Assembly (NCBI RefSeq): GCF_052425735.1
Contig: NC_135760.1
Location: 13,392,001 to 13,456,000 of the forward strand
Direction: 5' to 3'
DNA length: 64,000 bases
Source of the DNA: Oculina patagonica
Lineage: Eukaryota
Part shown: positions 15,682 through 40,409 of the stretch, in pieces
How positions within the stretch are numbered: the first letter of the stretch is position 1
Layout of the letters: every line of letters begins with the position of its first letter
Position numbers and translations under genes: made by a program
The notes under the pieces: model-generated
The model's database searches: none
Told to the model about the DNA's origin: nothing
Seen by the model: the letters and a program-made list of their open reading frames with translations, nothing else

Positions 15682-18600
15682 ATGTCTAGAGATATGTCAG
15701 CAAAAGTTTATGTCGGAGGTCTTGGGAACAGTGGAGACAAACAAGAGTTGTGGAGAGCGTTTTCCAAGTATGGTACATTGCGTGACGTGTGGGTGGCAAG
15801 GAGTCCCCCAGGATTTGCATTTGTTGAGTTTGCAGATTGCCGTGATGCAGAAGATGCTGTTAGAAATATGGATGGAAGGAGGCTTGGAGATAAGAAATTA
15901 CGAGTAGAAATTTCAAACACAAGAAATCGTGGTGGAAGGGAAGGAGAAAAAAGGGGGGGTCGCGATAGTGGTTACCGTGGCGGCGGCAGTAGATACAACA
16001 GACGCGACGATTTCAGTAGACGTGATGATGACTTTGGTGGTCGTGATCGAGCGTACAATGATCAACGATTCTCACAAGCACGTAGAAGGTATGAGTGTTT
16101 GATAGCCGTGGCCCTGTTAGCTGTTTTCTAATCAAGTGCATGTGAAAATTAACAACCATTTTGGAAATACAAATTAATTTGATTTAATGTCGTGTTACCA
16201 GCAGCATCAGAACTTCTTTTTCAAGTCAGGAATGTGCTTAAGTACTATGTTATCACGTTTGTTGTTCAACCAAAATCATGCGAAAATGAATAAGAATTCA
16301 AACCAAATCAATGTTGAAATGAGTCTACATTGTTTACTTCACATTGCCCCAGTGAGTCCCTGAATCAGTTTATATCAGACATTTTTGAGCACTTTTTCAC
16401 TTTTTTTCATTGATCATGATTGCCATTCCTCTAAAGAAGGAATTAGTACTTACATTTCATTTGCACTTTGAAATATTGACAATATTTTAAAATATTTCTC
16501 ATCACTATGTACATGGAATTATTTTACTTAAATTTATATCACATATTTAAATTGAAAACCCACTAGTATATAAACAACTAACAGGGCCTTGTTATAATAT
16601 ATTCAGTTCTCTTTTATAAAATAAACTGTAAGATAATTTATTTAATGTTTAGCTTTTAGACAGAGCTTTACTAATGAGGTTGCCATTACTATTTTTCTAG
16701 GTGATTAATTCAGGGTTTGTAGTCTTTACAAACCCATTCAACATCTCAACTTACAGGCCGAGAACTTTATGCTCCCAGCAAAAGTTCAAAGTAGCATCTG
16801 GGATATCTTCATCCTTCACTTCCTCCAACATCTCTTAATCAAAAAATTCTACAGCTCATCTTCTAAGTCAACATCAGAGGCATGATTCCTTGAGACGTCT
16901 ACTGTACCCTTCAACATTTATCTCAATTCTTCAAAATCTTACCCGCACCTCCCCAAAATGGGGTTTCTGCATGCATCTGTTTTGGCTTGATGTGTCAGCA
17001 GCAGGAATTCTTGCACTCAAAAATGCTTGCAAGCTATAGTTCAGAGAAGGTTGTGTGTTCAGCGTGAGCAAGGAGGGTTCATGATCCAGTCAGCAGCAAA
17101 TAGTTTAAGAGAGCAGCGGTCCCTACTGCTGTTGTTTACCGACAGACGGAAGCCTGAGTCGCACCCCCCAGGAGAGGTCCCTTTAACACCGACTACCTGT
17201 AATTTAATTCCTGAAGCTGATTGTTGAATTGATGCATCAAAACACCATACTTGTCATATTTATTCGTCATGTAGTGCATCACTTCCTGTAAAGAGATGTA
17301 AGTGTCACAAGGGTAATTTATGTTGAAGACCTTCGCATGTTTATACGTAGACGATAGGAGAAGAAACTTACATGCTTTGCAGAAAATTAGAGAAGTTTGA
17401 GCACAAACCTTAACTTGGAATGCTTTCATCATGTTTAAGAGTGACAGTTCTTAGAGTGGTCATGAGTAACTAGTAAACTGTCGGCCTTATTAAGCTATCA
17501 TTTTCCTCCTTTCCAAAACACTGATGTAATTATTACTGTTCCAAAAATCCTGGGAGTACTTTTCTTATTACACTGAGCAAAGTTCTTTTTTATATTTCTA
17601 TTTGGGAAATGATATTATTATAATGATTTTTTTTCTTTATTATCATTTATTAAGAGTATGATAATGTTTAAAAAGTTATAGTAATGGTTTAACTATTCTG
17701 TTATTTATTTTGTGTTATTTCTGTGATGTTATTTTTCTCAGATCTCCTCCACCAAGATCTCACGAGCATTCTCCACAGTAAGTCATTTATAATATGAAAA
17801 GTTATCTTGTTTCTTTGATCTTCTGAGTCACAATCATTGTGTAGGGATGTAGTTAGGAAAAAACTAAACAGGCTCATCGACGAGCCCAGTTGGCTTTTCT
17901 GGCCTGTAAACTTTCAAAATTACCACAAATCATTGTTTGCTAGTGAAAAGCTCTGTTAGCTAAATGTTAGCTGGCTCTTAGCTACATCCCTGGTAATCAA
18001 TATGCCTGACAAAATCTCAATTAAGCCCCCCTTTAACTACTCCCCATAGATTATCTCTGCCACCTTGTACATGTTGGTCACCCATAGATCTACCTTATTA
18101 TAGGAAATTAACGATACATGTTATTAACACGAATTTCAAAAATTCGCGTTAATTTTATTGATGTAATTAATATAAACATGTTTACTATAATCATTTAACC
18201 AGAACTTTTCTTAAATTTGCGTTAATTTTATTATGCATCAATTTTGTTCGCATTGTTAAAATGCCTCGTTATATTCCTGTAATAAGGTATTTTGATTTGT
18301 GGCACTTGTCTGCCTCTCCCTGCCCCCTCCCCCCCCCCCCCCAAAAAAAAAAGAGAAAAAAAAGTATCTGGGGTTGCTTGTGCTGGTTTAAGAAAGATTC
18401 AGGCTCATGTCTACCATGTGCTAAGTATTTTTTTGACTTCTCTGTATGTTTCACATGTAATTGGGTTGTGTTTTAGTACAAAACTGTCATTCTAACTCGT
18501 GTTTGTTATTGCTTTTGCAGGGGGAGATACAGCCGCAGAAGAAGCAGATCCCGCAGCCCAGTAAGGCGTTAAGATTGCATCCAGCTAATGCAGGAAAACT

Positions 18601-21910: not shown

Positions 21911-22671
21911 CATAAGGTGCGGAACTAATGAGGCAAGACGTGGTAAGTCTATGAATCGAGTGATAAGAGAAAGCAGAGGGCGGGACTCCAGGTGGTGGAA
22001 ACCGGGAGAATGGGAAACTTTACTATGCCACTTTTAACATGAGAAAACGTACGAAACAAGAAACACTAAAGAAGGGATGGAGACAGCAGTAAATTGCTAA
22101 AAGGTACGGGAAGCGGGAAGTTTAGTAACTCTCGCTATCCCTCCCCTACAAATTTTAACATTATCCATTGGCCTGATTTTTGTCAGTTTTGGCGCGTAAA
22201 AACGGATGTCTTTGTGGAAGAACTGAGCAGTTTTATTTGTTCTTGTGAAGGGTCACTATCTCTGTCATTTCACTGTTATCTGTTTAAATGCGCAGTTGCA
22301 CAGTCATGAGCTTTAACTTTTCTTAACTGCCACTAGGGTCCACTTCGTCTTTTATGAGGTGCGACCGCGCGAGACTGGGGCGACAACTAGGCAGTCTCCA
22401 GAAATGCACAAACCAAGGGGGGGGGGGGGGGGAAGAAACGAGGTCTGGGACCGAGTAGCGATGCTCTCACAAATCCTCACAACTTGCAAAGCGATCAATT
22501 CACGATGTAGTCAGCGGTTTTTGGACGATGATGCAACAGGCAATCTTTTCCCGCGAAATGGAAGCTGCTATGTCGTGGAATCACTTATTATAAAGGGGTT
22601 CAATTCTCTTAACTAAAAATCTAAAAGCAGCGTGTTTAAATCCGAAAATTTCGTCATCGTCGTGTAGTTTT

Positions 22672-22968
22672 AGTAGTATAGTACTTGGGGGTACGAAATC
22701 ATTTTTTAAAAAATAATTTCATCTCCCCAAGTACATACTACTTTCCAGTGCTGGATTTAAAACTGGATCCAAAACTGGATTCAAAAAATGGAATCAAAAC
22801 TTCTTATACTCTTTTTCAAAATTTTAGATACAGTGCGTTTAAACAAGCCTTGATATCATAACTGAAATATCAATCTGGAAAAACAAGCAAAGCCGAGTTT
22901 TATGATGTTTTTGAAATTTATTTCAAAATCTCTTATACTCTTTTTTAAAAATTCAGTGCGTTTAAAAT
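22672..22968 (+). repeat. Polinton left terminal inverted repeat
   Basis: By eye it is identical to the reverse complement of the right end for ~210 bp (to ~22882), then similar with substitutions and indels to ~22968. Confidence 0.93.
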
Positions 22969-23250
22969 CAACTCTTTTATTCCTGCTTGCCTTTTCATAT
23001 GCAAAAATCAGATTTGGTTCCCACTGTTATCATATTATTAATAATTAAATACTTCTTATCCAAGGTCATAAGAAAATTCAAAAAGCATTTTCTATTTTGG
23101 CAACTATATATAGCAACACAATAATATTTACTTTTTGATTTTTTCAGCCAATCAGAGCTTTCATTTTTTTGTCCAAAATTGTTTCTTAAATGTATAATTT
23201 TTCCGAATTGGTTTCAAAGTTGGTTGGGTTTTAGAAGCAGTTATTTCACC

Positions 23251-23625
23251 ATGGTTTACACACAAGCGCAATTGGAAGAGAAAATAATACATGCAACCGA
23301 GGTGATATCAGAGTCTTATCAGATATGTTTGGAGCTGTATCAGACACCAAAAGTTGATATTAATATGAAGCTTGATGAATTTAAACAGAATTTATCTACA
23401 ATGGATTTGGATACTGTAGAGGAGGGATTTGAGAAGGGTTTGTCGCTTTTCACAGAGATAAAGAAGATGATTTTTGAGGAACGGAAACGTCGCCGTTATG
23501 TACGACAGCTAAAGAATAAAAAGAGACTAAACAATATCAAGATGGATGTTAAATTGGTACGCAAATCCAGAAGACTACAAGAGGCTGAAAGCGTGATTAT
23601 TCACAATGGATTATCAGCAAACTGA
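23251..23625 (+). CDS. Polinton hypothetical protein (helical, basic C-terminus); likely ATG at 23251
   Basis: Open frame MVYTQAQLEEK... with a basic NLS-like stretch (ERKRRR). No recognisable family. Confidence 0.5.
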   Translation: MVYTQAQLEEKIIHATEVISESYQICLELYQTPKVDINMKLDEFKQNLSTMDLDTVEEGFEKGLSLFTEIKKMIFEERKRRRYVRQLKNKKRLNNIKMDVKLVRKSRRLQEAESVIIHNGLSAN

Positions 23626-23631
23626 ACTTGA

Positions 23632-23847
23632 TTAAATTTTATTATGGCCGTAAGCAAAACTGGTTTTACCATTTTCATGTATGTATCTTTTATCATCAAA
23701 GCAAGACAATGACACTTTATTAAGCTTGTAGCTATAAAGTTGATGTTTGTTGCTCCGAATGGTTTTCATCATATGATGCATATGTTTATTATTAAAGAGT
23801 GTCTCTCGGTAGTCTTGAAAATTGATGTCTTTTTTAATGATATTTTT
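23632..23847 (-). pseudogene. Stub of a second, divergent pPolB C-terminus (71 codons plus stop)
   Basis: Translates KNIIKKDINFQDYRETLFNNKHMHHMMKTIRSNKHQLYSYKLNKVSLSCFDDKRYIHENGKTSFAYGHNKI*, which is 47/71 identical without gaps to the end of the adjacent PolB (hand alignment). Confidence 0.9.
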
Positions 23848-23870
23848 TTATATGTTTTTTTATAGTGCGT

Positions 23871-26800
23871 TTAAAATAAACTTTGAATTTTATAATGTCC
23901 ATAAGAGTAACTATTGATCCCATTATCAAGTATGTACCGTTTATCATCAAAACAACTGAGTGATATTTTATTAATCTCATAGCTTCCGAGTTGATGATTT
24001 TGACTCCTGATGGTTTTCATTTTATGGTGCATTTGCTTGTTGTCAAATAATGTTTGCTTATAGTTTTCATGTGTGATATCTTTTTTGATGACGGATTTCT
24101 TGATTCCTTTGGCAGTCTTTCCAACTTGTAAATTGTTTTTAATATAAGAATACATTTTTGATCGCAGACCAATGAATTCTAAAATAGGAATAAAAGAAGC
24201 TTCATCTTTGAATTTACCAATGACTTTCTTGTTTGTTTTATTATAAAATGGAGAGCTTTCAGGGTAGTCACTATTGTCAAATTTTTCCTTATCATTCCAA
24301 AAGTCTTTGTAAACATCATCAGCCTCAATTTCATAGGTTAAGCTATCAGTATCTGTAAATAAAAGCCTAGCTTTATCCCCATATTTTTCTTTGATATAAT
24401 TGTAATGAAAATCATACATAAGTGTTTTGCTAAGATCTAGGATACACATCCCAATATATGCCGGCCTATTGAGAGTGAGTGTTTCTTTGATCTTATGAAC
24501 AGCTACGAGGTCTTCATTAAATATCTTACTGCTGACATAAGTTGGTTTACTTGTAAGCTTTAATAGCTTCTTTGTATTAGTTACCAATCTGACATCTACT
24601 CGCTTTCTTAAATTTTCCATGGTTTTACCGTATACTGAATTATTCATCAATTTAAAAAAGTCTTTTTCAAAAGTGTTTTTAGAATTTTTGCGTTTATCAG
24701 TATTAAAATCAATGTATTGCTTTAACCATGGAGATTGATTAAATTCTAACACTCGATGGACTTTGGTTAATTTTAAACCGAGATCTAAATACAACTGAAG
24801 ATTCTTGTAATGTAACACATATTTTTCCTTATTATTCAATGTAGGCATCAGTTTATGTACTAAACCTGTTGATATATTGTATTTTTCAGCAATGTTTTTG
24901 CAATAATCCGATAGCATATTTTGAGTTACTTTTACTTTTTCTGATCCAAGAGGATAGTCGTTATGGAGATCATGTAACTTTTTGGGGTATTCTAAGTCAA
25001 CTTCTAAAATCAAACCCTTCTTACTGTTTTCTGTATACTTAGATAAGTTTGTATTATTAATCTGCTTTTCTGTCAACCATTTAAAACCACCAGTTGGTAA
25101 AAATTGACTCATAGCCCATCCATAAAGGTTGTTTGCATCAAGATACATAATATACTTTGAGGGCACCTTTTCATTATATTCTTTCATGTATTTATTGTTT
25201 GCTTTACTATATCGATTGGCTATATAACTAATACCTCCTCTCATACCCTTTTCAATGAATTGATACATGTCAATGTCAGTCATCAACTCTAATTTAATGT
25301 CAGTCATCTTTAGCATAGCATCCCAGCTTAAACCTGGGGATGTGAAATAATGACATGGATCAAGCTTATAATACTTAAAACAGGTCTTACGGAAGCTTTC
25401 AAAAACATCTGCTAATAATAAGACATCTGATTTTAAATATAAATCATGATACTCACCCATATTTTTGATCTTAAACGTTTTCCACACATTTTTTGCATGC
25501 TTATAGTCTTTGTCTGATATATGCTCATTATTTAATATACTGTAAAATTCTTCTTTAGTTGGTAGCTCTGTATTAAATTTATCAAAGCTATCCATATAGT
25601 CATAGGGATAAACTCCTTTCCTCGACATAAGATTAAGCTTATCACCCTCAAACATTTTAGAAGTATATATTAATTTTTCTCTCGGCAGATTACTTACTAA
25701 TTTATCAAGACTGGAACTCATAAACTGGAAACTATCAAGGAATGTTAAATGATTACCGAGCATGAATGCCATATACTTTTCTATGTTGTTGGGTATAGCA
25801 TTGATATTCATCTCTTTCATTTCACCTTTTTTATTTTTATATGTATGGTTCTTAACAATACTTCCGATCTCTTGCATTATAAAGTGACTGTCATATCCTC
25901 TTAGATTATGAAAAATGACTGGTATTTTAATTTTATCGGGCTCTATTCTTAATTTAAGATTGCATTCTTGATGAGCTGATCCTCGATATTTACCAGTTAT
26001 ATGGCAATGGTCTCTAACTCGTATATCTTCGTCAGTATATTGTTTGTCACAAATATGGCATCCGTTTGCTTTTTGAAATGCATCTTCATCATCTTGAGTC
26101 ATTTTTAATGGTTTTTTAAAGAATTTTCGCATAGTCGTTTTGCAATATTTAACTTCATCTAGCATAGCTTCCATGAATTTATAAACAGCTTTTTCACCTC
26201 GGTATATCTGAACAGGCTTTGAATATTTATCATCATAGCAACAAACAACCTTATAACCATATCCACAATCTTTGTGTTTTTGATAAGCTTCAGTAAATGA
26301 TTTATCATCATTAGGCTTACAACCAGATATCTTTTCTGTTATTGCTTCAAAATCAGCATATATGGTGAATGGAACTTGCTGTTGCTTATGAAAGTTATTG
26401 AATTTCAGTATACTATTATCCTTATCAGGCATCTTTACTGCTTGAGTCCCATTGACTTGAATGCAATTATCTTTGTGATCGTTTAATACTCTCTCAGAAC
26501 TAAAGCACTGGAGACAATACATGCAAAAGAACTTCTTTTCTTTGTGTTTTGTTTTGTTATACATGAATTTATTGAAATCTTTTATTAGAATATAATGCTT
26601 GTTTTCATTTTCAGTTATCAATAATAAATTCATCTGATTGTCATACTTTTCTTTTGATATAAAAATGGGATATGGTTTCTTGTCTTCGTAACCGAAAACA
26701 TTTATATTGATTTCATTCTGTTTCTCGATTTTGTTGAACTGCTTTATATTCACAGGAAAATTAATTCCATCATAATTTAACTTTTCAACATATGCTTTAT

Positions 26801-27627
26801 CCGATTTTTTGATCCTTTGAGGGTATTTATCTTGGGGATTAAGATGCCTGATATGGCACCAACGGAAGCATTCATTATCCTCATTTTTCATGTTAATCAA
26901 TCCTTTTGCGCTGTTTCTAAGTTCTTGAGGAAGCCGAATATATGAGGAGCCTTTCATTGGTTCATATTTCACTATATTAAGATAGTGACCATCAACAGAT
27001 TGCAATAGCCCAGCCCGAGCCTTCTGATATCCACTGAGCTACGAAATTTAAGATTTGTTGTTTTGATTTTTGTAGCGATTCAGCAATCTCCATACTATTG
27101 ATGATTGTTTGAGGTTTGCTGTTGAAATAGGCTGTTTTATAAATAATGTCATCACCAGACATCTTTGAAAATGTTACCTTCAGCGTTTCAACAAATTTGA
27201 TTCCCTTTATAGCTATAAGGGTTTTTATGATATGATATTCAACAGCTTTCCTTGTGTTTTGTAGTTGTAATAACGGGTCTTTGTTATGTTTTATACCAAT
27301 TTCAAAAGACTTTGTGTAGCCTTTCATAGCTTTAGCAACTTCCTCTATCTTAGTCCTTGGTAATGGAATTGGGTTTTGTTTTATAGTCCTAGGCATTGGT
27401 ATAGGCTTGTAATCATCCCTAAATTCAGGAGGTGGTTGAATGATATTTTCCTCATAATCCTGCACCATCTGTTTTACACTCTTACGAGGAGTTGGGATTG
27501 GTGGCCTAGGTTTGTAAACTCTTGGTTGGTTTGCTTTTAGTGATAATACTAGTTTTATGAGTTCAGTTTTAGATAATTTTTCTAGATCTAATTCATTCAT
27601 ATTAATATATGAGATATTTTTTTCCAT
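23871..27627 (-). CDS. polB: Protein-primed family B DNA polymerase, split into ORFs 26992-27627 and 23871-27005 by a 1-nt insertion at ~27003; ~1251 aa if repaired
   Basis: Exonuclease motifs YADFE, FHNLRGYD and YLKSDV; polymerase motifs YLDANNLYG, KLMNNSVYGK and FTDTDS. An EndoVII-like insert CHIC...VRDHCHITGKYRGSAHQECN and a C2H2 finger CMYC...HKDNC are present. Removing base 27003 gives a continuous EGSGWAIQSVDGHYLN. Confidence 0.95.
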
Positions 27628-27793
27628 TTTTGTGTACTATATAGAATTACCATTTCTTTAAGTCCTTTATAGTAAAAATTATTTTTTAGATTTTTTTGGT
27701 GCGTTTAAAAGATAACCAGAAATAAATATATTTTTGGTCACCTAAGGCAACAGATAACAGCAATTCATATATACTGTGCTATACAATATATAA

Positions 27794-28033
27794 TTATATA
27801 ATATTGCTTTCTATGTTTTCAGCTGGTATTATGTTGTATTGGTCTTCATTAGCCTTGATAACAGTATTTTTAATATGCTTCTTGGTCCTTATGTGAGAGT
27901 GCTTTCCAGCGAGCGTGTAGTCATGTTGACATGCATCACATATCCATGATTTGTTTAGCATATATCTGGTCTTGCTTTCCTTAATAGCGTTTTGTCTGTC
28001 TTCTTCATTATCGTATTTTTTATTTCGTCCCAT
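27794..28033 (-). CDS. Small C2H2-type zinc-finger protein
   Basis: CDACQHDYTLAGKHSHIRTKKH (C-x2-C...H-x5-H); AT-rich leader. Confidence 0.7.
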   Translation of the reverse strand: MGRNKKYDNEEDRQNAIKESKTRYMLNKSWICDACQHDYTLAGKHSHIRTKKHIKNTVIKANEDQYNIIPAENIESNII

Positions 28034-28153
28034 TATATATACTATATATTATTTCCTTAAGTGTTTTTTATAGTGCGTTTAAAACTGGAAATATCAAAAT
28101 TAACGTACTATAAAAAGTGACTTAAAGAATTGTTATATAGTATAATTATATAG

Positions 28154-28468
28154 ATGAACAAACAACTGGTTGAAATGGAAACAATCGAGATGCTGGATGA
28201 TATATGGTTTATCCATAGCTTATATCCAAGTTGGGGTGCTAATGAGTCTGGTGATATTCTTTATATTGCCAAGAGGAAAATTTTGAAACCAAAAATGACT
28301 GATTCAGGAATGGTATTTAACGTTAGCAATGGGCATGGTTTTAGGCTATATCAAGTCGATAAATTCGTTTTTGAGGTTTTTAATGATATTGAATCAGTTG
28401 ATGGTGATATCATTCATATAGACGGTGATATAACCAATAACAGCTTTCTTAATTTGAAGCTTGTATAA
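28154..28468 (+). CDS. NUMOD4/HNH homing-endonuclease-like protein, possibly degenerate
   Basis: N-terminal HSLYPSWGANESGDI..KILK and C-terminal VDKFVFEVF...IIHIDGDITNNSFLNLKLV match the HNH_3 pattern VHRxVxxxF...DHIDGxxxNNxxxNL. Confidence 0.65.
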   Translation: MNKQLVEMETIEMLDDIWFIHSLYPSWGANESGDILYIAKRKILKPKMTDSGMVFNVSNGHGFRLYQVDKFVFEVFNDIESVDGDIIHIDGDITNNSFLNLKLV

Positions 28469-28576
28469 TATTAATAATTTGGTTTGCTTACACAGCTTTT
28501 ATGGTATATAAATATATTCTTTATATTTATGCCTTGTTGTAGTAGCATAAAAATAAATCTTACATATTAGTATATA

Positions 28577-28726
28577 ATGTCTTGTAATTCACAAATTCAC
28601 GATGAATTAAAGAATATTGAAGAGTTTTCATGTCGTTATTGTGATCAACTATTAGTGGAAGGCGATATTGCCTTGAATCATCTTTATATAAATATATTTA
28701 TATATGAGATGTTTTGTGATACATAG
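28577..28726 (+). pseudogene. Truncated paralog of the N-terminus of the downstream VLTF3-like gene
   Basis: MSCNSQIHDELKNIEEFSCRYCDQLLVEGD aligns with MRCFVIHSDLKIMGEGSCIFCNELLYTGD of ORF 28704, then degenerates and stops at 28724-28726. Confidence 0.7.
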
Positions 28727-29342
28727 CGATTTAAAAATAATGGGTGAGGGTTCTTGTATTTTTTGCAATGAGTTATTATATACAGGCGATAAAGTTGTTG
28801 ATCATTGCTGTGATAAACCTGATATTTTGGAAGATGCATATATGAAAGTATGCCAAAATTGTGGGACTCAGAATTATAAATATGTTAGCGAGTATTTTGA
28901 TTTTTACGAGAACAGACACAAGATATGGCGTAAAAGCATCTATCATCGTAAATACCATATTGAGAATGTTTTAAACGATTTATGTATTAAAAATGGAGTT
29001 CAATTGTCTCATAATCATCGCGATAAGATTTACAAAGTGTTTCATGAGATCGATACTATTCTTCCATCTATAAATAAAAGAAGAAAGAGGATGATCTCAA
29101 CGAAATATATTATAAGACAGTTGTTTAAAATGCTCGGTATACCATACAATTTTATCTGTGTTACTGAATCAAAAAAAACGCGAGCTTTTAATGATCGGTA
29201 TTGGGGTAATATTTTAGAATTGAAAAATCGTCCCAGATCGTGCGGCTTATTCAGTAAATTTATTATCATATTTTACCATATACCGATCTATTATTGGGCC
29301 GTTATCGCATATGTAGTCGTCAATGCTTTTCATTGTATTTAG
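28704..29342 (+). CDS. Cys-rich protein resembling poxvirus/NCLDV late transcription factor VLTF3 (A2L); its C-terminal end probably reads through into the neighbouring gene
   Basis: Zn-ribbon CCDKP...VCQNCG; YHRKYHIENVL (cf. YxRxxHFxExL); RKRMISTKYIIRQLFKMLG...ESKKTRAFNDRYWGNI (cf. RKNFLxYxYVLxKL...KSxxKxxxxDxIWxxI). Confidence 0.55.
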   Translation: MRCFVIHSDLKIMGEGSCIFCNELLYTGDKVVDHCCDKPDILEDAYMKVCQNCGTQNYKYVSEYFDFYENRHKIWRKSIYHRKYHIENVLNDLCIKNGVQLSHNHRDKIYKVFHEIDTILPSINKRRKRMISTKYIIRQLFKMLGIPYNFICVTESKKTRAFNDRYWGNILELKNRPRSCGLFSKFIIIFYHIPIYYWAVIAYVVVNAFHCI

Positions 29343-29746
29343 GATGCTAGACGGATTATAATTGCCACCCGTTCTCATAGTAACTTTAATAGAGTGTCAA
29401 AAGGTGTATGCATATAGGTTTGGGATGCATATATGGAGTTATGAATTTTTAGATCGAGATTTTTATGATCATCAAAGCCTTGAATTAATAACGAAATTGT
29501 AGTTATTGTAACCAAAGCAATACCACCTGTAGCTATAGAGGAGGCAAGGAAGCCGCTTGATGCAAAGAGGATAGACAATGAATTCCCTAATAACTTCCAT
29601 TTTTTGAAACGTTTAACAGCCTGCTTATAAGCCCAACATTTTCGATGATATGTTTGATAATAAGCTTTCAATTCTATAATTTGGTCTTCAGTAAGTTCGC
29701 TTGATATATGGTTCCATGTAAATATGCATTTTCGATGTTTAGTCAT
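29247..29746 (-). CDS. Two-TM membrane protein with a frameshift near 29395-29410; the C-terminus SIKVTMRTGG...KYDNKFTE* is in another frame
   Basis: Hydrophobic hairpin LLGNSLSILFASSG...GGIALVTITTISLLIQG. A stop-free continuation in a shifted frame ends with a stop at 29247-29249. Confidence 0.6.
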
Positions 29747-29778
29747 ATATATTAGTTATATATGATTTTTTTGCTTTA

Positions 29779-29895
29779 TTATTTTGTCATTTTAGCATTG
29801 CGCTTGTTCTTTATTGTGTAATACAGCTTCCTTATGTTTTGAATTAATCTCTCAATAGAATCAATAATATTGCTAACCAATTTCACTGTTTTCAT
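29779..29895 (-). CDS. Possible 38-aa basic amphipathic micro-ORF (MKTVKLVSNIIDSIERLIQNIRKLYY...)
   Basis: Fills the gap between two co-oriented genes and has an AT-rich TATATG start context. Confidence 0.35.
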   Translation of the reverse strand: MKTVKLVSNIIDSIERLIQNIRKLYYTIKNKRNAKMTK

Positions 29896-29932
29896 ATAAT
29901 TTAATTAGATAAAATCGTTGGAGTTAGATAAT

Positions 29933-31978
29933 TTATTGGAAGAATACAGCCTTTGTTTTATCTAAAAATTGGATTTTATGATACTCTCTACCATTTATCG
30001 GATATGCAGTTTTACTAAAAGCGATTCTTTGTACATAGTAATCTGAACTGATTTTAATGTTGGATGCATTGATATTAAACCTAGACAATGTTTGATCAAT
30101 ACTCATAGCATTATTGCAAACAGCGATTCTAAATTGATTTCCTATTTTAGTATACCAGAGATTCAAATATTTATCAAAATATGTTCCTCTTATTTGCTCT
30201 GTATATGAATCTAGATCATAATCGATGAATAGCTTATTATGCTCCACTTTAACCCACGGAAAACTAAAACTATCACCCTCGATAAATTCAATTTTAATCC
30301 TTTTATTATCACTGGGCTTATAGTCATATTTAAATGCCATATATATAGTCCAGTCATTGGATTCAGTGATATTTTCATTTAAATTAATTTCGAAACCACT
30401 CATAAAGCCGTTTTTTGGATCAAAATCTTCTAACAATTTTGTGGGATTAAAGACAAGATTGCCATTTAATCCAGACACTACAGCACCGTTACTATCTGAC
30501 ATGATGAATTCAGATGGATCCGTTAGATCATAAAAATACTCGAAAATTTTATGGTAATAGCTGATGTTTCTTTTCTTATCCATTTTTAATTCAAGATCAG
30601 ACTTCAAATTGTCCCGAAAATTTTTTAACTGTTCAAAATTAACAGCTTGGTCATTAGTAGTAGCTGGTTTAATACCATAAATAGCCTTTGTTTTCATATC
30701 AATCGATGCATTGAAAGCTATTCTATCATTTTCAACATAATATAGCTGATCGTATATCCTAGGATCAACGTTACTCTGATAACCTTTTATTCCATAAATC
30801 ACGATATATGTTTGTAATTTTGGGACATATGCGTTCCCTGATTTCATCTTTAAAACGATATCAACATAGAGATAATTATTAGGATGTTGCTGATATTTAT
30901 TAATTTGTGCTATTGTTCGACTATATCCATCATAAACTCGCGTAGTTGATTTGTCGATGTTGTCGATTGATGATACAATATCGATATCTAGACTATCATG
31001 ATCTATTTCAGCTGGAAAAAATAGCTCGAAAACCATTGTGTATCGATTGATTGGTAAACTATATACATTGATACCTAATCTGCTTGAGTAGTATCCTTTA
31101 TTGTTGTCAAGTACCAGCTTACTGTCTACAACTTTCGTATTGATCTTATGGTATGAATTCGGATGATCGATTAAACTGCCTAACTTTATATCATCTTCCT
31201 CGCTTAATTGATTGATACTATCGGCCATTATATGGGCAAACGTGTTTTCTTGGCCAACGGAAGTTATATGACTGCTATCAACATGATCAAGCATATATTT
31301 TTTGTTTACAGCGTCTGTATCATTGGTTGGGATTTTTAGATGGGTTATATTATACCCACCCATATGGAGATTTGCCTGCATCATGTTACTACCGTGAATA
31401 TCAAGCTTGCTTAGAATTTTTTGAGTCAAAACGCGTCCTACGACCTTCTTTAAAAAACTGTTATCAACGTACGATTTGTCTGCTTTGTTTTGAAGGCTTT
31501 GAGCTAAGACACCTCCTGATTTCTTCGTTAAATATGTATTATCAGCGTACGATTTGTCAGCCTTAGTAGCAAGTTTGGTATCAATTTCAGTCCTTACTTT
31601 GTTATCCTCAACACTAACATAGCCTACGTTTGGTACAGATCGATCGTTATATAAAGTTGGATAATACACTTCGGTATTTTGCAATGAAAGGCCGGCACAA
31701 TCAAACACTGTTTCATTTCTGTTCTTTTTAAGGAAGAATTGGTTAAGATATCGTTTATTTACGGCCGTCTCGAGATCCCTTGAATAATTTTCAATTGAAT
31801 CATCGATCGCAACGTCATCAGGCGTTTTTAGCCCTATTACTCTCTTTTTGTTCAAATTGAAATTACCTTCAGGCGTAACATCAAAGCCGACTCCTGGGTC
31901 ACCCTTTTCACCTCGAGGCCCTTTAATTGGCGTAATATTAGTGTTATTTGATTGTAATAAACCGTTTGAGTAACTCAT
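29933..31978 (-). CDS. Putative fiber/spike (receptor-binding) protein
   Basis: Collagen-like GPRGEKGDPG; three neck-like repeats (TAVNKRY, DAVNKKY, QAVNFEQ); a 26-aa tandem KADKSY repeat; beta-rich C-terminal domains. Confidence 0.65.
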   Translation of the reverse strand: MSYSNGLLQSNNTNITPIKGPRGEKGDPGVGFDVTPEGNFNLNKKRVIGLKTPDDVAIDDSIENYSRDLETAVNKRYLNQFFLKKNRNETVFDCAGLSLQNTEVYYPTLYNDRSVPNVGYVSVEDNKVRTEIDTKLATKADKSYADNTYLTKKSGGVLAQSLQNKADKSYVDNSFLKKVVGRVLTQKILSKLDIHGSNMMQANLHMGGYNITHLKIPTNDTDAVNKKYMLDHVDSSHITSVGQENTFAHIMADSINQLSEEDDIKLGSLIDHPNSYHKINTKVVDSKLVLDNNKGYYSSRLGINVYSLPINRYTMVFELFFPAEIDHDSLDIDIVSSIDNIDKSTTRVYDGYSRTIAQINKYQQHPNNYLYVDIVLKMKSGNAYVPKLQTYIVIYGIKGYQSNVDPRIYDQLYYVENDRIAFNASIDMKTKAIYGIKPATTNDQAVNFEQLKNFRDNLKSDLELKMDKKRNISYYHKIFEYFYDLTDPSEFIMSDSNGAVVSGLNGNLVFNPTKLLEDFDPKNGFMSGFEINLNENITESNDWTIYMAFKYDYKPSDNKRIKIEFIEGDSFSFPWVKVEHNKLFIDYDLDSYTEQIRGTYFDKYLNLWYTKIGNQFRIAVCNNAMSIDQTLSRFNINASNIKISSDYYVQRIAFSKTAYPINGREYHKIQFLDKTKAVFFQ

Positions 31979-32002
31979 ATTATATCAATCAGTTATATTA
32001 TA

Positions 32003-32644
32003 TTATATTTTTTCATTGAAATTCTTAGTTACGAATTTTCGTGGCTTATCAATATATAAAAAGCTAAATGGGTCTGCAGTTGCTTTGAGATAGTCGTTTT
32101 TACTGATTCCAAGTTCTCTGCAAATCATTCCTTGTTCATTATTAGATGGGAATTCGAAAATACAGTGATGAGTACAATTTAATCTGATTGTTTTATCGGT
32201 ATTATAATAGCTTTGAGATAAATAAATGCAACTGCAATTTTTATTTCTTGAATTTGTAAAATAGTTGCGTATTTCGCTATCATTTTTTGATCCCGTATTG
32301 AGATAATCGTCAAAGATGACTAGTTTTTGTCCTTCATCTGATATTTTATCAAGCGGTATTATTTTATCATTACTTGCTTCAATAACAGAATAACCAGCCT
32401 CTTGATTAAGGGGTTCAAAGGTATTGAAAAGATGTTGATATTTTGATTGTTGAAGATTTTTCCCATACAAATATATTTTATCATAAAACAATAGCCGATA
32501 TATCATATCAAGTAAAAGGTTTGATTTACCTCCGCCTGATGGTGATGAAATCAGCATCCGGAAACATTGATTTGGCATGAAATCGTATAGTTGTCTAAAG
32601 TTTGAGGCCATATCGTCTTCAGTGTCATAATTCGGTATTCTCAT
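32003..32644 (-). CDS. A32/FtsK-HerA-type genome packaging ATPase
   Basis: Walker A SPSGGGKS, Walker B LVIFDD, and downstream SRNKNCSCIYLSQSY and IRLN. Confidence 0.9.
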   Translation of the reverse strand: MRIPNYDTEDDMASNFRQLYDFMPNQCFRMLISSPSGGGKSNLLLDMIYRLLFYDKIYLYGKNLQQSKYQHLFNTFEPLNQEAGYSVIEASNDKIIPLDKISDEGQKLVIFDDYLNTGSKNDSEIRNYFTNSRNKNCSCIYLSQSYYNTDKTIRLNCTHHCIFEFPSNNEQGMICRELGISKNDYLKATADPFSFLYIDKPRKFVTKNFNEKI

Positions 32645-32780
32645 TATATTATATGGGTATATTATTTTCAGTTCAACAAGGTGTTCAACACGGTGTACAT
32701 CAAGGTGTTAAACGCTATGTTAAATGTTGATTTTTATATTCAATTTTCATTTTTTATGTAACGTAATAATATAAAATAAA

Positions 32781-33791
32781 ATGAGTTTACTTAGATGGAA
32801 AGAGCTTGCAAAGAGTAAATCTGATTTGGGCGATAAAATCAATTATGTTAAAAATGCAATCACACAAAATAATATCGGTCAGCAGACAAGCCAAGAGTCA
32901 TTTTCGAAGGTATTCAAACCAGTGACAAGTAAATTAGATGATGTAATTAAAAGTAATTTGCAGATAGCAAAAGTACCCAAAAAGCGTGTCAAAAAGGGGA
33001 TGAGAGGTGAAATGGAAGCTCCAGATTACTATCCTGAAGTTGATCCTTTTGAGGATATGGACGTAGATAATTTATTTGATGAGCCTGTAATGCCACAAAA
33101 TGAAAAACAGATTGTACCGAAACCACCAACATATGAAGAATCTTTAAAAGATCTTTTAGAAGGAAATAAGGAGATTTTTGTTGATCCCCAATATTTTCCT
33201 GAATATGAAGATGAATTACCTCCTGAATACGATGAGGATGAAATTGATTATGCTTTAGATGCTGATGATGAAGTAAGTGAAATACTAGAAGACGTTGGTA
33301 TCGACGATTATGATGTAGTGCAAATGAAATTAGATCAGCCTGAAATGACACCAAAAAAAACCAAGAACTATCTTAATAAGATTTTAGAGAAAGCCAAATA
33401 TAAACGGAGACAATTGAAAGGTTTCAAGGCGAATGTTACTAAAGAATATAATAGGGGAACTATATCTGAAGCGGAAAGACAGATTAAAAATAAGAGAATA
33501 AGCAATGCAAGAGTTGCATTAAATGACTACATAAATCATTACGAAAGTAAAGCCAAAACGATAAAAGGTTCTGGTATTCGAAAAAATCAGAAAGGTGGAA
33601 ATGTTATATTTTTTAACGATGTAAAACAGCTTCTCAAAAAATTGGAATTGATCATCGGTTCAATAAACGCAGGAAACACATCAGTTAAAATGCGAAATAT
33701 GGGAGTCGCTATATTAGACACACTTTTAAAAAGGTCTACTATAAATAAACAACAATATAAACAGATATATAATCTGTACTTTAAAGTCTAA
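32781..33791 (+). CDS. Conserved Polinton protein of unknown function (acidic centre, two PPxY motifs, C-terminal LIIGSINAGN motif)
   Basis: First gene of the co-oriented morphogenesis cluster. The LxLxxGSxxAGN motif recurs in Polinton proteins. It contains a candidate protease site, IKGS/G. Confidence 0.65.
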   Translation: MSLLRWKELAKSKSDLGDKINYVKNAITQNNIGQQTSQESFSKVFKPVTSKLDDVIKSNLQIAKVPKKRVKKGMRGEMEAPDYYPEVDPFEDMDVDNLFDEPVMPQNEKQIVPKPPTYEESLKDLLEGNKEIFVDPQYFPEYEDELPPEYDEDEIDYALDADDEVSEILEDVGIDDYDVVQMKLDQPEMTPKKTKNYLNKILEKAKYKRRQLKGFKANVTKEYNRGTISEAERQIKNKRISNARVALNDYINHYESKAKTIKGSGIRKNQKGGNVIFFNDVKQLLKKLELIIGSINAGNTSVKMRNMGVAILDTLLKRSTINKQQYKQIYNLYFKV

Positions 33792-33813
33792 TTTATGTAA
33801 CTGTATTATATAT

Positions 33814-34572
33814 ATGGATCGTGAGTTAGTATTATCATCATATAGTGTTAAAAATCAAGGGAATAACACTCCTCAAAATTTTACAACTAAATTCAACAGG
33901 CCTATAACATTGGATAGCAATTACCAATATATGATAGGTCTCAATCGTATTATTAACATGTCATTTACATGGTTTAATGTAAATCCCTCATATGGTAATC
34001 AGCTGATTAAATATAGTTCAGATAATGGGAATAAATTTGAAGACATAACTTTCCCTGCAGGTGTTTGGAATTATTCTGAATTTGATGAATATATTAAAGA
34101 GATTACTAAGACGGGGGATGATGATAACCCTATATATCCCATCTCTATTGATTTTGATTCAACAACATTCCGAGTCACAATCACTTTATCTCAAAATTAT
34201 CAACTTGATTTGACGCATAGCAATTTCAACGACCTTATAGGGTTTGATAAAAAGGTATTAAAGGATGCGGTTAATATTGGTCCAAGAGTCCCAAATCTAA
34301 GCCAAGATACCGATATATTAAATGTACATTGCGATCTAGTCAATACTTCTTTAGTCGATGGCGAAGAGTCGGATATCATTTATACTTTTTCGACCAGCGT
34401 ACTACAGCCGAGTTATTCGTTTACAATCGAGCCTCGTAGGGTCACATATAACCCGGTTAATAAGCAACAGATAAGTAGCATTCGAATATACATCACAGAT
34501 GGGAAGAGACGGTTAATTAACCTGAATGGAGCGGATACGTCTTTTTCATTAATTTTGAAAAGGATAGAATAA
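33814..34572 (+). CDS. Minor capsid protein (penton, single jelly-roll)
   Basis: NTPQNFTTKFNRPITL, LNVHCDLV and ISSIRIYITDGKRRLINLNG motifs; position upstream of the MCP. Confidence 0.85.
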   Translation: MDRELVLSSYSVKNQGNNTPQNFTTKFNRPITLDSNYQYMIGLNRIINMSFTWFNVNPSYGNQLIKYSSDNGNKFEDITFPAGVWNYSEFDEYIKEITKTGDDDNPIYPISIDFDSTTFRVTITLSQNYQLDLTHSNFNDLIGFDKKVLKDAVNIGPRVPNLSQDTDILNVHCDLVNTSLVDGEESDIIYTFSTSVLQPSYSFTIEPRRVTYNPVNKQQISSIRIYITDGKRRLINLNGADTSFSLILKRIE

Positions 34573-34591
34573 TATAACATAATAGTATATA

Positions 34592-34993
34592 ATGAAACCA
34601 TATGAATTCAAGAGGTTTTACCATCCAAAATTTGGTAAATTTGTATATAAGCACAAAGGGTCAGGGATTATCGTTGATAACATTTTCAAACCGATGAAGA
34701 GTGTTATGTCGTCTGTTGTTAAAAAAATTGTCAAGCCCTTAGGTAAGAAGGCAATAAAATCAGGTATTTCTCATGCAGGTGATAAACTGGGTAAAAGGGC
34801 ATCAGAAAAAGCCGGAGACCTTATAATGGAAAGGCTAAGGAATATGAGGAAGGGAAATGCTGGGCAAAAGTCACTATCCCCAATCTTACAGAAAGTAAAT
34901 GCCTCACCTGTCAGACACCAACAGAAAAATGAAAGTACTGATATGATCATTAATAGATTAATATCAGGATCAGGTGTAAAAAGAAGGCGTTGA
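34592..34993 (+). CDS. Basic amphipathic virion protein, adenovirus pVI-like (membrane-lytic candidate)
   Basis: KGS/G followed by the amphipathic helix IIVDNIFKPMKSVMSSVVKKIVKPLGKKAI; C-terminal ISGS/GVKRRR; lies directly upstream of the MCP. Confidence 0.55.
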   Translation: MKPYEFKRFYHPKFGKFVYKHKGSGIIVDNIFKPMKSVMSSVVKKIVKPLGKKAIKSGISHAGDKLGKRASEKAGDLIMERLRNMRKGNAGQKSLSPILQKVNASPVRHQQKNESTDMIINRLISGSGVKRRR

Positions 34994-35058
34994 GTAAAAT
35001 GAATAAAATGATTAAAAAAATTGGTACATAATTGCAAAATTATGTAACATAATAATAT

Positions 35059-36324
35059 ATGTCTTTTAGAACAAGCGAATACTTACAGAGATATGAGTTG
35101 GTTCGATTTCAACTCGATGATGTAATTCGAGTCCCAGCTAACGGTCAGCACCAACTTAAAAACGGCTATAAGTTCACGATTAACGATAGAAGTTCATTCT
35201 ACGATTGGTATAATGCGTATTTCGAGGTGCAATTTCAGGTGCAAATGTTAGCTGATGGAGCAACCACGGGGGCGAATCGTATCACAGTTATTAATGGAGC
35301 ACATTCATTGATTGCCCACATGATGATTAAATCAGCAGGAAAAATCGTTTATGATACCGATAATCTCCATAAAGTTACTTTCGTTAAGAATCTCCTCGAA
35401 TATAGTGACGATTTTAGTCGTTCAGTAGCAAAAAATAGTCTTTGGTATCTAGATACCGACCATAGGATAGCAAATGCTAATCAGAATGCAGGGTTTGAGG
35501 CTAGGCGACTTTTGACGACAGGTCTCAATGATGTCAATGTTGTTATACCTCTAAATCGTTACAGTTTCTTTGAAGAGCTGGAAGGTCGAATGTTACTCCC
35601 AATGCAACTCCAATTCAATATACAGTTACAGAATGACGCCGAATTACTTAAAAAGGCCGATGATGTAGCTGATGGACGAGTGGTCCTTAATAGATTCCTT
35701 CTATGGGTCCCAAAATTGACTCCAAAGGACAGCCTATATGATAAGTTTGTTAGTTCCTTCTTGGTAAAGAACACTTGGACGTATATGCGCGAAATGTATG
35801 AGGTTTCCGCACCAACGAATAGCAGTGGATTCTTCCAGATCTCATCCAGTATTGATAATGTTAAGGCTATCTTTGTATATCTACAACGAGCTAAATCAAA
35901 CAATGCAGATGAAAATCCCTATGAATTTGATACCTTCAATATCAATCTTGACCGTGGGAATGGTAGTTATTTGACAACATGCCGATTGGAATACGGCAAC
36001 GGAGTGTTTTATCCTGAGACCGAATATGATAGTGAGTCCAAAGTTAGGATCTTCAATGATTTGATGTCTTATGGTATGAGAAAGAATGATTACAACAGCG
36101 GTACACAACTCAACTTGGCAAATTACAACTCTCTCTATCCTATTATCTTTTTTGATTTATCATATCAAGCAGAGCGAGTAACTAGAGACCCAAAGCAGTT
36201 GATCTTCAGATATAAACTAAACGCTAATAGTGCGGGAGATAGTCCTTTCAACGTCCATGCCATCGTTCTTTATGATGAGACAATCGTCATTGACAAGGTG
36301 GGGAATGAGCTGGTTATTGTATAA
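35059..36324 (+). CDS. Major capsid protein (double jelly-roll, Polinton PY/hexon-like)
   Basis: 421 aa, beta-rich; motifs VKNLLEYSDDF, IPLNRYSFF, LWVPKL, FYPETEY and YPIIFFDLS; located between penton and protease. Confidence 0.85.
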   Translation: MSFRTSEYLQRYELVRFQLDDVIRVPANGQHQLKNGYKFTINDRSSFYDWYNAYFEVQFQVQMLADGATTGANRITVINGAHSLIAHMMIKSAGKIVYDTDNLHKVTFVKNLLEYSDDFSRSVAKNSLWYLDTDHRIANANQNAGFEARRLLTTGLNDVNVVIPLNRYSFFEELEGRMLLPMQLQFNIQLQNDAELLKKADDVADGRVVLNRFLLWVPKLTPKDSLYDKFVSSFLVKNTWTYMREMYEVSAPTNSSGFFQISSSIDNVKAIFVYLQRAKSNNADENPYEFDTFNINLDRGNGSYLTTCRLEYGNGVFYPETEYDSESKVRIFNDLMSYGMRKNDYNSGTQLNLANYNSLYPIIFFDLSYQAERVTRDPKQLIFRYKLNANSAGDSPFNVHAIVLYDETIVIDKVGNELVIV

Positions 36325-36415
36325 ATCAATCAATTGAATATTATGTATAAACCATTCTATTTTGTATACGTTTTATAAACAAGAAATTATATAACATATA
36401 ATATATATACAAGTA

Positions 36416-36922
36416 ATGACAACTTATCACTCTCATAAAGTGAATCTGTCAGAAGGACAGCGAAGGAAGCTTTTGACTGCTTATAGAAATAAAAGTGAGA
36501 TCACTATTCGCTTAAGCAATTCAGATATGACTGGCAATGACAGTTTAATGCTAACTCAACGACAAATCAATAAATTGAATAAGGCTAAGAAGTTAGGTGT
36601 TGGATCTTATTTAAACATCTCAAAGGCACAAATTCGAAAGGTCATTAGGGTCGGTCATGGGGCACCGCGGATTGGTTTTCCAATGATTGGAATAAGTGCT
36701 ATGAAAACGAAAACAAGATCAAGAAGGTCAACAACTAACAAATCAACAACTGATAACACTTCAAAGAAGGATGGTGGAAATATTAGACTACCAAGTAAGA
36801 AAGATGTATTAGCTTACACACCGCCACCATTCATTGGTTCTTGGGATGAATATGATAAATTTCTTAGAACAGGTGGATTGGTGCTTCCAAAAAAAAAGAT
36901 CTTAAAACCGAAAAGAAAGTAA
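36416..36922 (+). CDS. Basic putative core (DNA-condensing) protein
   Basis: Pattern VNLSEGQRRKL...TIRL...LMLTQRQINKL..A...G...ISKAQI seen in Polinton structural modules; K/R-rich, with GxG motifs. Confidence 0.6.
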   Translation: MTTYHSHKVNLSEGQRRKLLTAYRNKSEITIRLSNSDMTGNDSLMLTQRQINKLNKAKKLGVGSYLNISKAQIRKVIRVGHGAPRIGFPMIGISAMKTKTRSRRSTTNKSTTDNTSKKDGGNIRLPSKKDVLAYTPPPFIGSWDEYDKFLRTGGLVLPKKKILKPKRK

Positions 36923-36951
36923 GAAAGCCAACATTCCATAAGAATATACCA

Positions 36952-37383
36952 ATGAGTAATTTTGATTTAATAAACTGGTGTTTATATTTGAATATACCGA
37001 TAAAAAATGTACTAATGAGAGACGAGACTGTGCCACATAATCACAAATTAGGAATATTCATTTACAATCTCCAACCGTCATATCTGAGTGGTAGTCATTG
37101 GGTTGCAACTTATGTAAAAGATAAGGTAATCAATTATTTTGATAGTTTTGGTATGCCTTCATTTCAAAAAATAGTCGATCACGCAAAAAAGAAGAATTTA
37201 ACATTGCTACATCAAAACAATCAGATACAGAATATAAATACAACCACATGCGGATACTTCTGTTTATACTTTTTGAATGAGATGAACCATGGGAATACGT
37301 ATTCTAATTTGTTGGAAGTGTTTGACATATATGACACAATGAAGAATGAGAAATTCATTCAACATTATTTCAGAAATATATAA
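36952..37383 (+). CDS. Adenain/Ulp1-like cysteine maturation protease; the frame is open from 36868 and may be reached by -1 frameshift
   Basis: Catalytic motifs GSHWVA, YFDSFG and QIQ...TCGYFCLYFL. Confidence 0.92.
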   Translation: MSNFDLINWCLYLNIPIKNVLMRDETVPHNHKLGIFIYNLQPSYLSGSHWVATYVKDKVINYFDSFGMPSFQKIVDHAKKKNLTLLHQNNQIQNINTTTCGYFCLYFLNEMNHGNTYSNLLEVFDIYDTMKNEKFIQHYFRNI

Positions 37384-37397
37384 CTTATATATATATA

Positions 37398-37850
37398 ATG
37401 GTTAAATCGTATTGTGTACGTGAAAAAATAAAAACTAATTCAGTTCCTAATTCTGAAAAATATATGAGAACAAAAAACAATCGTTTAATACTCAAATCGA
37501 AATGCGTTTCTTGTGGTATTACTAAAACCCGTTTTGTTAGTGCCCAAAAAAAGAAAAAAGGGCGTGGAGTAGGTGAAACGATTAACAAAAAGGTCGGCGA
37601 AAAGATTCCAGGGTTTCAACAGGCTCAAGACTTAGCATCGGCTATCATGGCAGTTACCGGAGGTGATAAAGATCTATTTAAAAAATATTGGCGCGGTGAC
37701 TTTGCTAAAGGTATATTTAATAAAAAAAGCGGAATTCAGACATCTAATTTTTGGAAGCCTGCTGGTGCATATACAAATGAAAAATTTAATCCATCATGTA
37801 ATTACACAGAATATAAAAACGGCAAATGGGTTAATCATTATTGTGATTAA
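37398..37850 (+). CDS. Zn-ribbon (DUF5679-like) basic protein with a unique C-terminal region
   Basis: YCVREK...TKNNR...KSKCVSCGITKTRFV followed by KKGRG. Confidence 0.6.
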   Translation: MVKSYCVREKIKTNSVPNSEKYMRTKNNRLILKSKCVSCGITKTRFVSAQKKKKGRGVGETINKKVGEKIPGFQQAQDLASAIMAVTGGDKDLFKKYWRGDFAKGIFNKKSGIQTSNFWKPAGAYTNEKFNPSCNYTEYKNGKWVNHYCD

Positions 37851-37869
37851 TATCTAACATATAATATAT

Positions 37870-38482
37870 ATGTGCCTGTCATACTGCGTTTCATGTAATA
37901 AAAAAACAAATTCAATCAATACTAAAAAAGTAAAAGCAAAGAATGGCCGACTTATGGAAAAATCAATTTGCTCAATCTGTAAAAACAAAAAGAGTAAATT
38001 CATCAAAGGTGGGGCTCTTGCACGTTTAAAGCCCTTCTCTGTTGTTGTTCTTTGTCTCTCCTTTGGGTGGGGGCGGAAAGGAAGGTATCGATATCCATAA
38101 AGCTATTTTAAAAGTAGCACCAAAAAAGGGTTTTGTAATGCCTGGTCATCGTTATACAGGTCCTGGTAATCCTTTAGAGAAACAGGTAAAGTGGGATCAA
38201 AAAACAGGTAAAATACTGGAGATATATGAAAAACCAACAGGAAAAACGGACGCCGTGAGCATGCAACATGACGTGGATTACTCAGTATGTGCAAACAAAC
38301 CATCAAAAAATCAGGTTAAATGCAAAAACGAAGCTGATAAAAAGATGGTAAAAGCCCTTGATGCTATCCCATGGAAAGACAGACAATGGGGTCATGCTAT
38401 TGCAAGGAACACTATTGCTACCAAGGCTAAAGTAGGTATGGGTGTAAAACAAAAGAAGACAAAAAACGGAAAACGGCGTTGA
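37870..38482 (+). CDS. Zn-ribbon plus parvovirus VP1u-type phospholipase A2 virion protein, interrupted by a 76-nt insert/intron at 38009-38084
   Basis: YCVSC...KNGR...CSICKNKKSKF; PLA2 calcium loop PGHRYTGPGN and catalytic QHDVDY...EAD. Removing 38009-38084 gives in-frame FIKGIDIHKA. Confidence 0.8.
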
Positions 38483-39429: not shown

Positions 39430-39548
39430 TCAATTTTTAAGAGTGCCTTAAAATCAATTATCAAGTATTACACATGCAAATAAAAATATTAAGTATAATA
39501 TTTTTATAAATCAGTATTTGATTACAAAAAATATTTTAGGACATACAT

Positions 39549-40355: not shown

Positions 40356-40409
40356 ATGACCAATCCACTATAAAAGAGATATAAAAAATAATGTATAATA
40401 AATATTATA

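Follow-up and report, generated by a model that had tools for sequence, protein, structure and literature searches.

The 64,000-nucleotide stretch of Oculina patagonica DNA analysed here (contig NC_135760.1 of RefSeq assembly GCF_052425735.1, positions 13,392,001 to 13,456,000 of the forward strand, hereafter the window) contains an 18,260-bp Polinton (22672-40931). Inside this element, two truncated gene ends flank the replication genes: a C-terminal stub of a protein-primed DNA polymerase (PolB) and a 5' stub of a VLTF3-like gene. Both stubs were probably left when free replicating genomes, prior to their integration, crossed over repeatedly in separate events, often at or near a 9-bp promoter-like motif, TAAACGCAC. 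The patchwork pattern extends over the rest of the element and not just the replication block. The Polinton belongs to a large family (249 candidates in the genome for one 521-bp query), from which 80 stretches of 10 kb were fetched; they hold the 43 other copies and three remnants that also served for the search for a donor.

The PolB stub (23632-23847, minus strand; 71 codons and a stop at 23632-23634) has its junction at 23840/23841. As the first-pass annotation of this DNA had reported, its frame (23635-23847) is free of stops and 47 of its 71 residues are identical, without gaps, to the PolB C-terminus; at the nucleotide level, stub and PolB tail form a 209-nt direct repeat at 71% (tblastn E 1e-20). 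The first two codons belong to an A-tract beyond the junction, and the frame has no start at the border, its first ATG being codon 23. Beside the stub lies a terminal cargo gene of 124 amino acids (aa) (23251-23625, plus strand), convergent with PolB and of no known family, for which no Pfam match, no usable Atlas match and no relative in the viral contig scan were found. This gene and the stub occur together, 99-100% identical, at two other loci, E1 and E2, where the gene is whole (98-99%). The PolBs of E1 and E2 differ from that of the window, and their junction with the stub lies 12 nt deeper. In five further copies, four of which have it at the integrase end, only 75 or about 63-67 codons of the 124-aa gene are left, and three remnant loci contain diverged versions (68-74%). 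Among the copies, the terminal cassette is cut in at least four places (23840, 23828, 23475 and 23432). Contigs of the public runs X5 and X15 span the junction at 23840 with 33 letters on the short side, and their matching ends at 23873, which is a motif edge. Comparison of the copies shows the left end, comprising the terminal repeat, the 124-aa gene and the PolB tail, to be a single cassette. Elsewhere in the genome, 124-aa genes form tandem arrays, with four copies at a 1.1-kb period (L053:1000-4770) or one whole and two partial copies (L052:7620-8640), and in E28 (L094:6350-6523) and E29 (L095:3949-4095) a PolB tail stands beside the terminal repeat without any PolB body.

A tree of 31 PolB tails places the stub with the remnants R1 and R2, in which a PolB tail is followed by a diverged 124-aa gene, against 26 others (support 98/98; R1 is a long, half-homologous row). 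The full PolB of the window falls among these 26 rows, which include copies sharing its capsid gene at 99-100%. This topology is the reverse of the one first predicted, in which the stub was expected to join the backbone lineage and the full PolB a donor lineage. The ratio of nonsynonymous to synonymous substitution rates (dN/dS) of the stub against other tails is 0.09-0.28, which fits a former working PolB end, and departures at conserved columns number 7 in the stub, 6 in the window's own PolB and 1 in R2. A related question is whether selection has preserved the stub, either because it serves the convergent 124-aa gene as a 3' untranslated region or because it encodes a short peptide. This explanation, not exclusive of the preferred one, is unlikely. 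It would account for the stub being retained stop-free and unchanged in all near-identical whole copies of the 124-aa gene (window, E1 and E2) and for the ATTAAA word found within 10 nt after the stop of that gene. Nevertheless, three near-identical copies are too young to reveal constraint, the frame opens without a start codon, E1 and E2 have no motif in front of the stub, and the dN/dS values are those of a former PolB end.

The second stub has its own borders and relatives. The region 28532-28665 (plus strand) comprises an upstream sequence and a 5' stub of about 30 codons of a second VLTF3 allele (ATG at 28577), placed before the VLTF3-like gene itself (28704-29342, plus strand; PF04947 E 5.8e-7). 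The homology of this stub to the VLTF3 N-terminus, also reported earlier, holds (13 of 29 residues, E 0.003), and 70-82 of its 88 nt match the beginnings of the longer VLTF3 genes of E27-E31, with 80-82 in four copies. The whole region is 99% identical in E4 and 85-93% identical to the longer VLTF3 starts of other copies. E4 carries the same stub with the same junction (28665/28666); the gene upstream of it is not that of the window, an HNH gene is lacking, and the PolB belongs to a different class. A second junction, 28531/28532, brought the piece into the window; it is unique to the window among the copies seen and is covered, with 30 letters per side (one below the threshold applied), by one contig of X1, which is perhaps the source sample and so not independent. 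Further on, the 3' end of the VLTF3-like gene leaves the sequence of other copies in frame after about codon 175. The VLTF3 stub is a separate cassette with a history of its own.

The earlier view of both stubs as remnants of diverged alleles left by recombination, and not as a separate gene family, is thus retained. An assembly chimera was rejected given the recurrence of the PolB stub with its terminal gene at E1 and E2 and of the VLTF3 junction at E4, the X5 and X15 contigs crossing 23840 and the intact target duplications. What does not survive is the proposal that the stubs border one block of about 4.8 kb, taken from a single donor and swapped in by HNH-driven staggered recombination, which now appears very improbable. 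The stubs do bracket the PolB, zinc-finger and HNH genes, although the PolB frame is broken near 27,000 and the HNH gene lies below its Pfam cut-off (14.8 against 24.8 bits); capsid types B and C each occur with both PolB classes, which do reassort, and PolB swaps have been published for nematode Polintons (10.1101/2023.08.22.554363, as far as that text was available). Against a single swap, the two stubs are products of separate events and are shared with different copies that lack the HNH gene of the window. The block is itself a patchwork, in which the best copy reaches at least 95% in 8 of the 24 200-bp intervals between 23872 and 28671 and the next one in 6. The reversed tree and the missing catalytic positions of the HNH protein point the same way, and the capsid type of the window goes with the window's PolB class in 7/7 scored copies, in a sample partly chosen by that PolB. 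Of the other copies, only 3 of the 24 having this PolB class carry the HNH gene, as do 2 of the 12 having the second class. The left end, the HNH gene and the VLTF3 stub are instead shown to be three cassettes, each common to different copies.

The protein-primed PolB (23871-27627, minus strand; PF03175 E 7.8e-17) includes an internal endonuclease VII-type domain (PF02945 E 3.7e-5). Its frame is interrupted between open reading frames (ORFs) of 211 aa and 1028 aa at a place where other copies read through. Within the gene, the nearest relative shifts from E3 to E41/36/35/31, then to E39/E6 and finally to the HNH carriers, so that PolB is an internal patchwork of alleles. Two PolB classes, 22% identical over 204 aa, were distinguished among the copies, 24 having the window's class and 12 the other. 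Both are found on capsid type B (8 and 6 copies) and on type C (4 and 2), and PolB class exchange evidently occurs in this Polinton family. The capsid genes fall into three types, 99-100%, 44-48% and 30-31% identical to that of the window; these types share integrase and PolB alleles, and the third one has its ATPase-to-protease block in inverted orientation. As far as about codon 94 (window position 27350; L037, L043, L091 and L097), the second PolB class has an N-terminal leader of the window type, and class swaps seem to cross over inside PolB, in a proline-rich repeat region. Upstream of PolB stands a 79-aa zinc-finger-like gene (27794-28033, minus strand) with a CxxC...H...H pattern read from its sequence and no Pfam match at the cut-off, paralogues of which are often found downstream of the motif in other copies.

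The HNH cassette (28085-28531, plus strand) carries a 104-aa HNH-like gene (28154-28468), predicted to be nuclease-dead, and is 99-100% identical in five other copies. On one side, the carriers have the zinc-finger gene and the 5' end of PolB in common; on the other, identity ends sharply at 28531. Through longer relatives, the 104-aa protein aligns with the N-terminal half of I-HmuI (PDB 1U3E), a homing endonuclease for which the available part of PMC12724721 gives D74, H75 and N96 as catalytic residues. The His is kept, whereas an Ile occupies the position of Asp74 and the protein ends before Asn96; the C-terminal DNA-binding half of I-HmuI is absent as well. All six homologues of 97-109 aa (search range 57-182 aa) likewise end before N96. 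In contrast, relatives of 212-253 aa keep these positions, and one of 212 aa, aligning to 1U3E residues 13-166, retains the C-terminal half. Because two of the three catalytic positions are missing and the gene stands beside both PolB classes, a homing role of the 104-aa gene is unlikely, and with it the homing-like module exchange suggested at first. If any nuclease acts, better candidates would be the longer HNH genes, the HNH domains inside PolB or the endonuclease VII-type domain of the window's PolB. Free-standing I-HmuI-like genes of 212-253 aa with the catalytic positions occur upstream of PolB in L043, L108, L120 and L122, and HNH-like domains occur inside long PolB frames of other copies (open frames of 1470-1550 aa).

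The motif TAAACGCAC has eight matches in the window, where 0.35 would be expected; all eight lie inside the element. Two lie in each terminal repeat (22833-22841 and 22956-22964; 40649-40657 and 40762-40770), one over the PolB stop codon (23865-23873, minus strand) and one upstream of each of PolB (27699-27707, minus strand), the zinc-finger gene (28073-28081, minus strand, also the left border of the HNH cassette) and the 113-aa terminal cargo gene (39961-40355, plus strand, motif included), the latter sitting at the PolB end in other copies. The motif points outward in 136 of the 138 cases that could be scored among 165, direction being unscorable for the other 27, and elsewhere in the family it often lies over the stop codon of the integrase gene. 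It has an invariant core of 7 bp and a strong preference over about 12 bp between diverse flanks, is not palindromic and has variable edges. From its position and surroundings, it is predicted to be part of an early promoter.

Homology breakpoints were counted in 73 stretches (624 kb), after exclusion of 9 of 82 stretches that held little of the element or were rearranged. A hard breakpoint lies within 20 nt of 117 of the 165 motifs, and 185 of the 2180 breakpoints lie within 20 nt of a motif against 23.6 expected, a TATAATG-type control giving 120 against 83.5. The density at motifs is 28.4 breakpoints per kb, about fourfold the 6.65 of other non-coding DNA, while coding DNA has 2.58; peaks occur at both motif edges. 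When 889 common 9-mers were scored for reassorted flanks, words overlapping the motif held six of the top seven ranks and 843 words scored zero; one left flank is joined to as many as nine right flanks. E3 is identical to the window over 23840-24200 (361 bp, through the motif) and then continues into the 113-aa cassette, which the window holds at its other end. A filled (E22) and an empty (E31) allele of the HNH cassette differ by 463 bp between two motif copies, of which E31 has one; their flanks are identical. Among 80 loci of related Polintons from other metagenomes, 12 contain the exact motif, 13 times in total and always on the integrase strand, compared with 0-6 in 20 shuffles. In viral contigs, 10 further matches without Polinton genes were taken as chance; the scan of these contigs found no relatives of the capsid gene, and the one PolB relative (43%) lacks the motif.

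One may ask whether the motif is a recognised recombination site, at which an element protein such as the integrase or the endonuclease domain of PolB nicks or joins DNA, giving a cassette system for the excision and insertion of small genes. The exact filled and empty alleles bounded by two motif copies, the many right flanks of one left flank, the breakpoint peaks at both edges, the motif copies within the terminal repeats and the endonuclease VII-type domain all speak for it. No tyrosine or serine recombinase was found among the 20 ORFs scanned, however, the motif is short, non-palindromic and of variable edges, most breakpoints lie elsewhere, and several junctions fall a few to 24 nt away from it. 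Active recognition by such a protein is therefore considered rather unlikely. Only slightly more credit is given to the broader idea of a built-in cassette system, with the motif as a targeted joint for excising, inserting and swapping cargo and whole polymerase bodies between ends and co-replicating genomes; if it were true, this system would be the counterpart, in an animal DNA virus, of the PeSL shuffling known from T4-type phages.

Several observations weigh against the proposed origin of the stubs by crossovers near the motif. As many as 1995 of the 2180 breakpoints are not near a motif, and the two stub junctions illustrate the difficulty, the VLTF3 one having no motif nearby and the PolB one lying 24 nt past a motif. 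Under stricter clustering, in which 34 left and 28 right flanks occur in 57 combinations, the motif score falls from 6 to 3. Breakpoints were counted per locus and ancestry is shared, hence they are not independent events, and the copies, chosen by similarity to the window, are a biased and partial sample of the family. A TATAA-like word follows the motif in 145 of 165 cases (AT content uncorrected), and 69 of the 165 motifs have an ORF start in the 120 nt downstream, compared with 47 in the other direction. Enrichment at a promoter can arise from selection acting on random crossovers alone. Finally, the search for a full-length PolB parent of the stub gave none, either in the genome, where the best candidate reaches 82-83% at the DNA level (40 of 47 candidates scored), or by protein, where the best is 80% among the 120 listed of 1023 matches.

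A further objection is that integrated copies could have converted one another in the host germ line and so produced the mosaics; hundreds of similar copies, one of them nested in another, would be available as templates, and such gene conversion would leave target duplications intact. We find this improbable. The two terminal repeats of one copy are at least 98% alike in 14 of 18 copies, whereas the median between copies is 79%; that is, a copy's repeats usually match each other and not those of other copies, as would be expected if both ends had been homogenised while a linear genome replicated. Four unlinked loci, E12-E15, have one new arrangement in common, which must therefore have spread after forming. 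In addition, many joints are non-homologous, and the insertion of the window is absent in other samples and likely young. Target duplications match in all 18 copies with both ends, and intact duplications on patchwork copies argue that the genomes recombined outside the chromosome.

Polintons are expected to replicate by a protein-primed, strand-displacing mechanism. Under the favoured explanation of crossovers between free genomes, co-replicating genomes would switch templates or join at short homology, the motif being the commonest shared sequence available to them. Selection would keep the joints that fall between genes, and a joint missing a gene border would leave a stub. In the case of the PolB stub, the crossover that imported the convergent 124-aa gene would have fallen about 210 nt inside the PolB of another lineage, carrying the PolB tail along. 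Further cut pieces are at hand in the truncated 124-aa and 113-aa genes and in the PolB tails of E28 and E29. Since the motifs of one arm are oriented oppositely to those of the other, crossovers between them would also shift cargo between ends, and such end-to-end movement is seen for the 113-aa and 124-aa genes.

Stony-coral Polintons have been described with a PolB, an integrase, an ATPase, a protease and a VLTF3 homologue, as in the window (Stephens et al., 10.1101/2023.10.06.561300), in a report whose main text, supplements aside, does not contain the words 'recombination', 'motif', 'HNH' or 'truncated'. The available text on nematode Polintons (Jeong et al., 10.1101/2023.08.22.554363) describes, as here, two very different PolB classes (pPolB1 and pPolB2) on similar elements of one genome, one of them with an internal HNH-type domain like the PolB of the window. 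The other genes of the nematode elements diverge gradually, whereas in the present family every region reassorts, including PolB alleles and three capsid types; moreover, the stubs of the window are not borders of a class swap. In the Polisuviricotina, replication and morphogenesis modules reassort, and tandem elements and homing endonuclease genes have been proposed as routes, in what was consulted of a survey that calls these routes speculative (Barth, Ha and Aylward, 10.64898/2026.10.13.758929). Module exchange by homing endonucleases is thus already in print as a hypothesis; that part of the survey works at the level of gene content across lineages and names no repeated promoter-like joint. 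No report of a repeated motif or joint in Polintons was found in the literature covered, which did not extend to subscription papers and supplements, nor is a matching motif reported in the accessible parts of PMC8547959, PMC11296320, PMC8097293 and PMC4642659.

The closest working analogy for the motif is the PeSL of T4-type phages, an intergenic, repeated early-promoter element that bounds small cargo genes (Arbiol et al. 2010, PMC2839356, consulted in part). In both systems, filled alleles have two copies of the element and empty ones a single copy, and shuffling falls at harmless intergenic places. In the window's family, too, an intergenic element recurs where cassettes begin and end, and filled and empty alleles exist; the position, orientation and downstream TATAA-like word of the motif would fit a promoter. 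However, the PeSL is conserved over about 100 bp including a terminator stem-loop; no conserved unit of that length is found here, where the shared core is 9-10 bp and the promoter is predicted. Unlike the PeSL, the present motif belongs to an animal DNA virus and also lies inside terminal repeats. For the swapping of replication and capsid modules among Polintons and related small DNA viruses, the motif offers a concrete and testable joint. With its hundreds of young copies and base-level junctions, the genome holds a recombination record of an element usually called a transposon, and single-gene trees of such elements will mislead.

The remaining features of the element are those of a Polinton. 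Its terminal inverted repeats (22672-22980 on the left; on the right within 40631-40937, target duplication included) start with AGTAGT, are 99% complementary across 233 nt and are flanked by a 6-bp target duplication, AGTTTT (22666-22671 and 40932-40937); an AGTAGT end and a 6-bp duplication are given for Polintons in the part seen of PMC8097293. Each terminus (22672-22743 and 40860-40931) is a 72-nt imperfect palindrome (86%). Contigs from the public runs X2, X5 and X15 pass from the left flank directly into the right one, which documents the empty site. Besides the PolB, which is above its Pfam cut-off although its frame is broken in this copy, the element encodes a retroviral-type integrase with a chromodomain (38605-39429, plus strand; PF00665 E 8.2e-11, PF00385 E 1.6e-8) and an A32 packaging ATPase (32003-32644, minus strand; PF04665 E 1e-9), both also above cut-off, and an adenovirus-type protease (36952-37383, plus strand; PF00770 E 0.0013) just below it. 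A 421-aa ORF without a Pfam match (35059-36324, plus strand) is the candidate major capsid protein, by its size, place and conservation, and was used as the backbone marker. A gene with a phospholipase A2-like domain (38138-38482; PF08398 E 5e-8) adjoins the integrase, and a 123-aa ORF (29375-29746) that measures 157-162 aa in other copies represents a further frame change in the window copy.

Among the other copies, E39 (L114:887-6206) is a 5.3-kb mini-element with both terminal repeats and a matching target duplication, which contains most of a PolB and a zinc-finger paralogue and lacks integrase and capsid genes. In E33/E34 (L104:5114), the terminal repeat of one Polinton directly follows the 150-aa gene of a second Polinton; this nested or tandem insertion is a possible route to recombination. 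Outside the element, the host ORF at 15682-16131 resembles what we take to be an exon of an RRM-bearing SR splicing factor.

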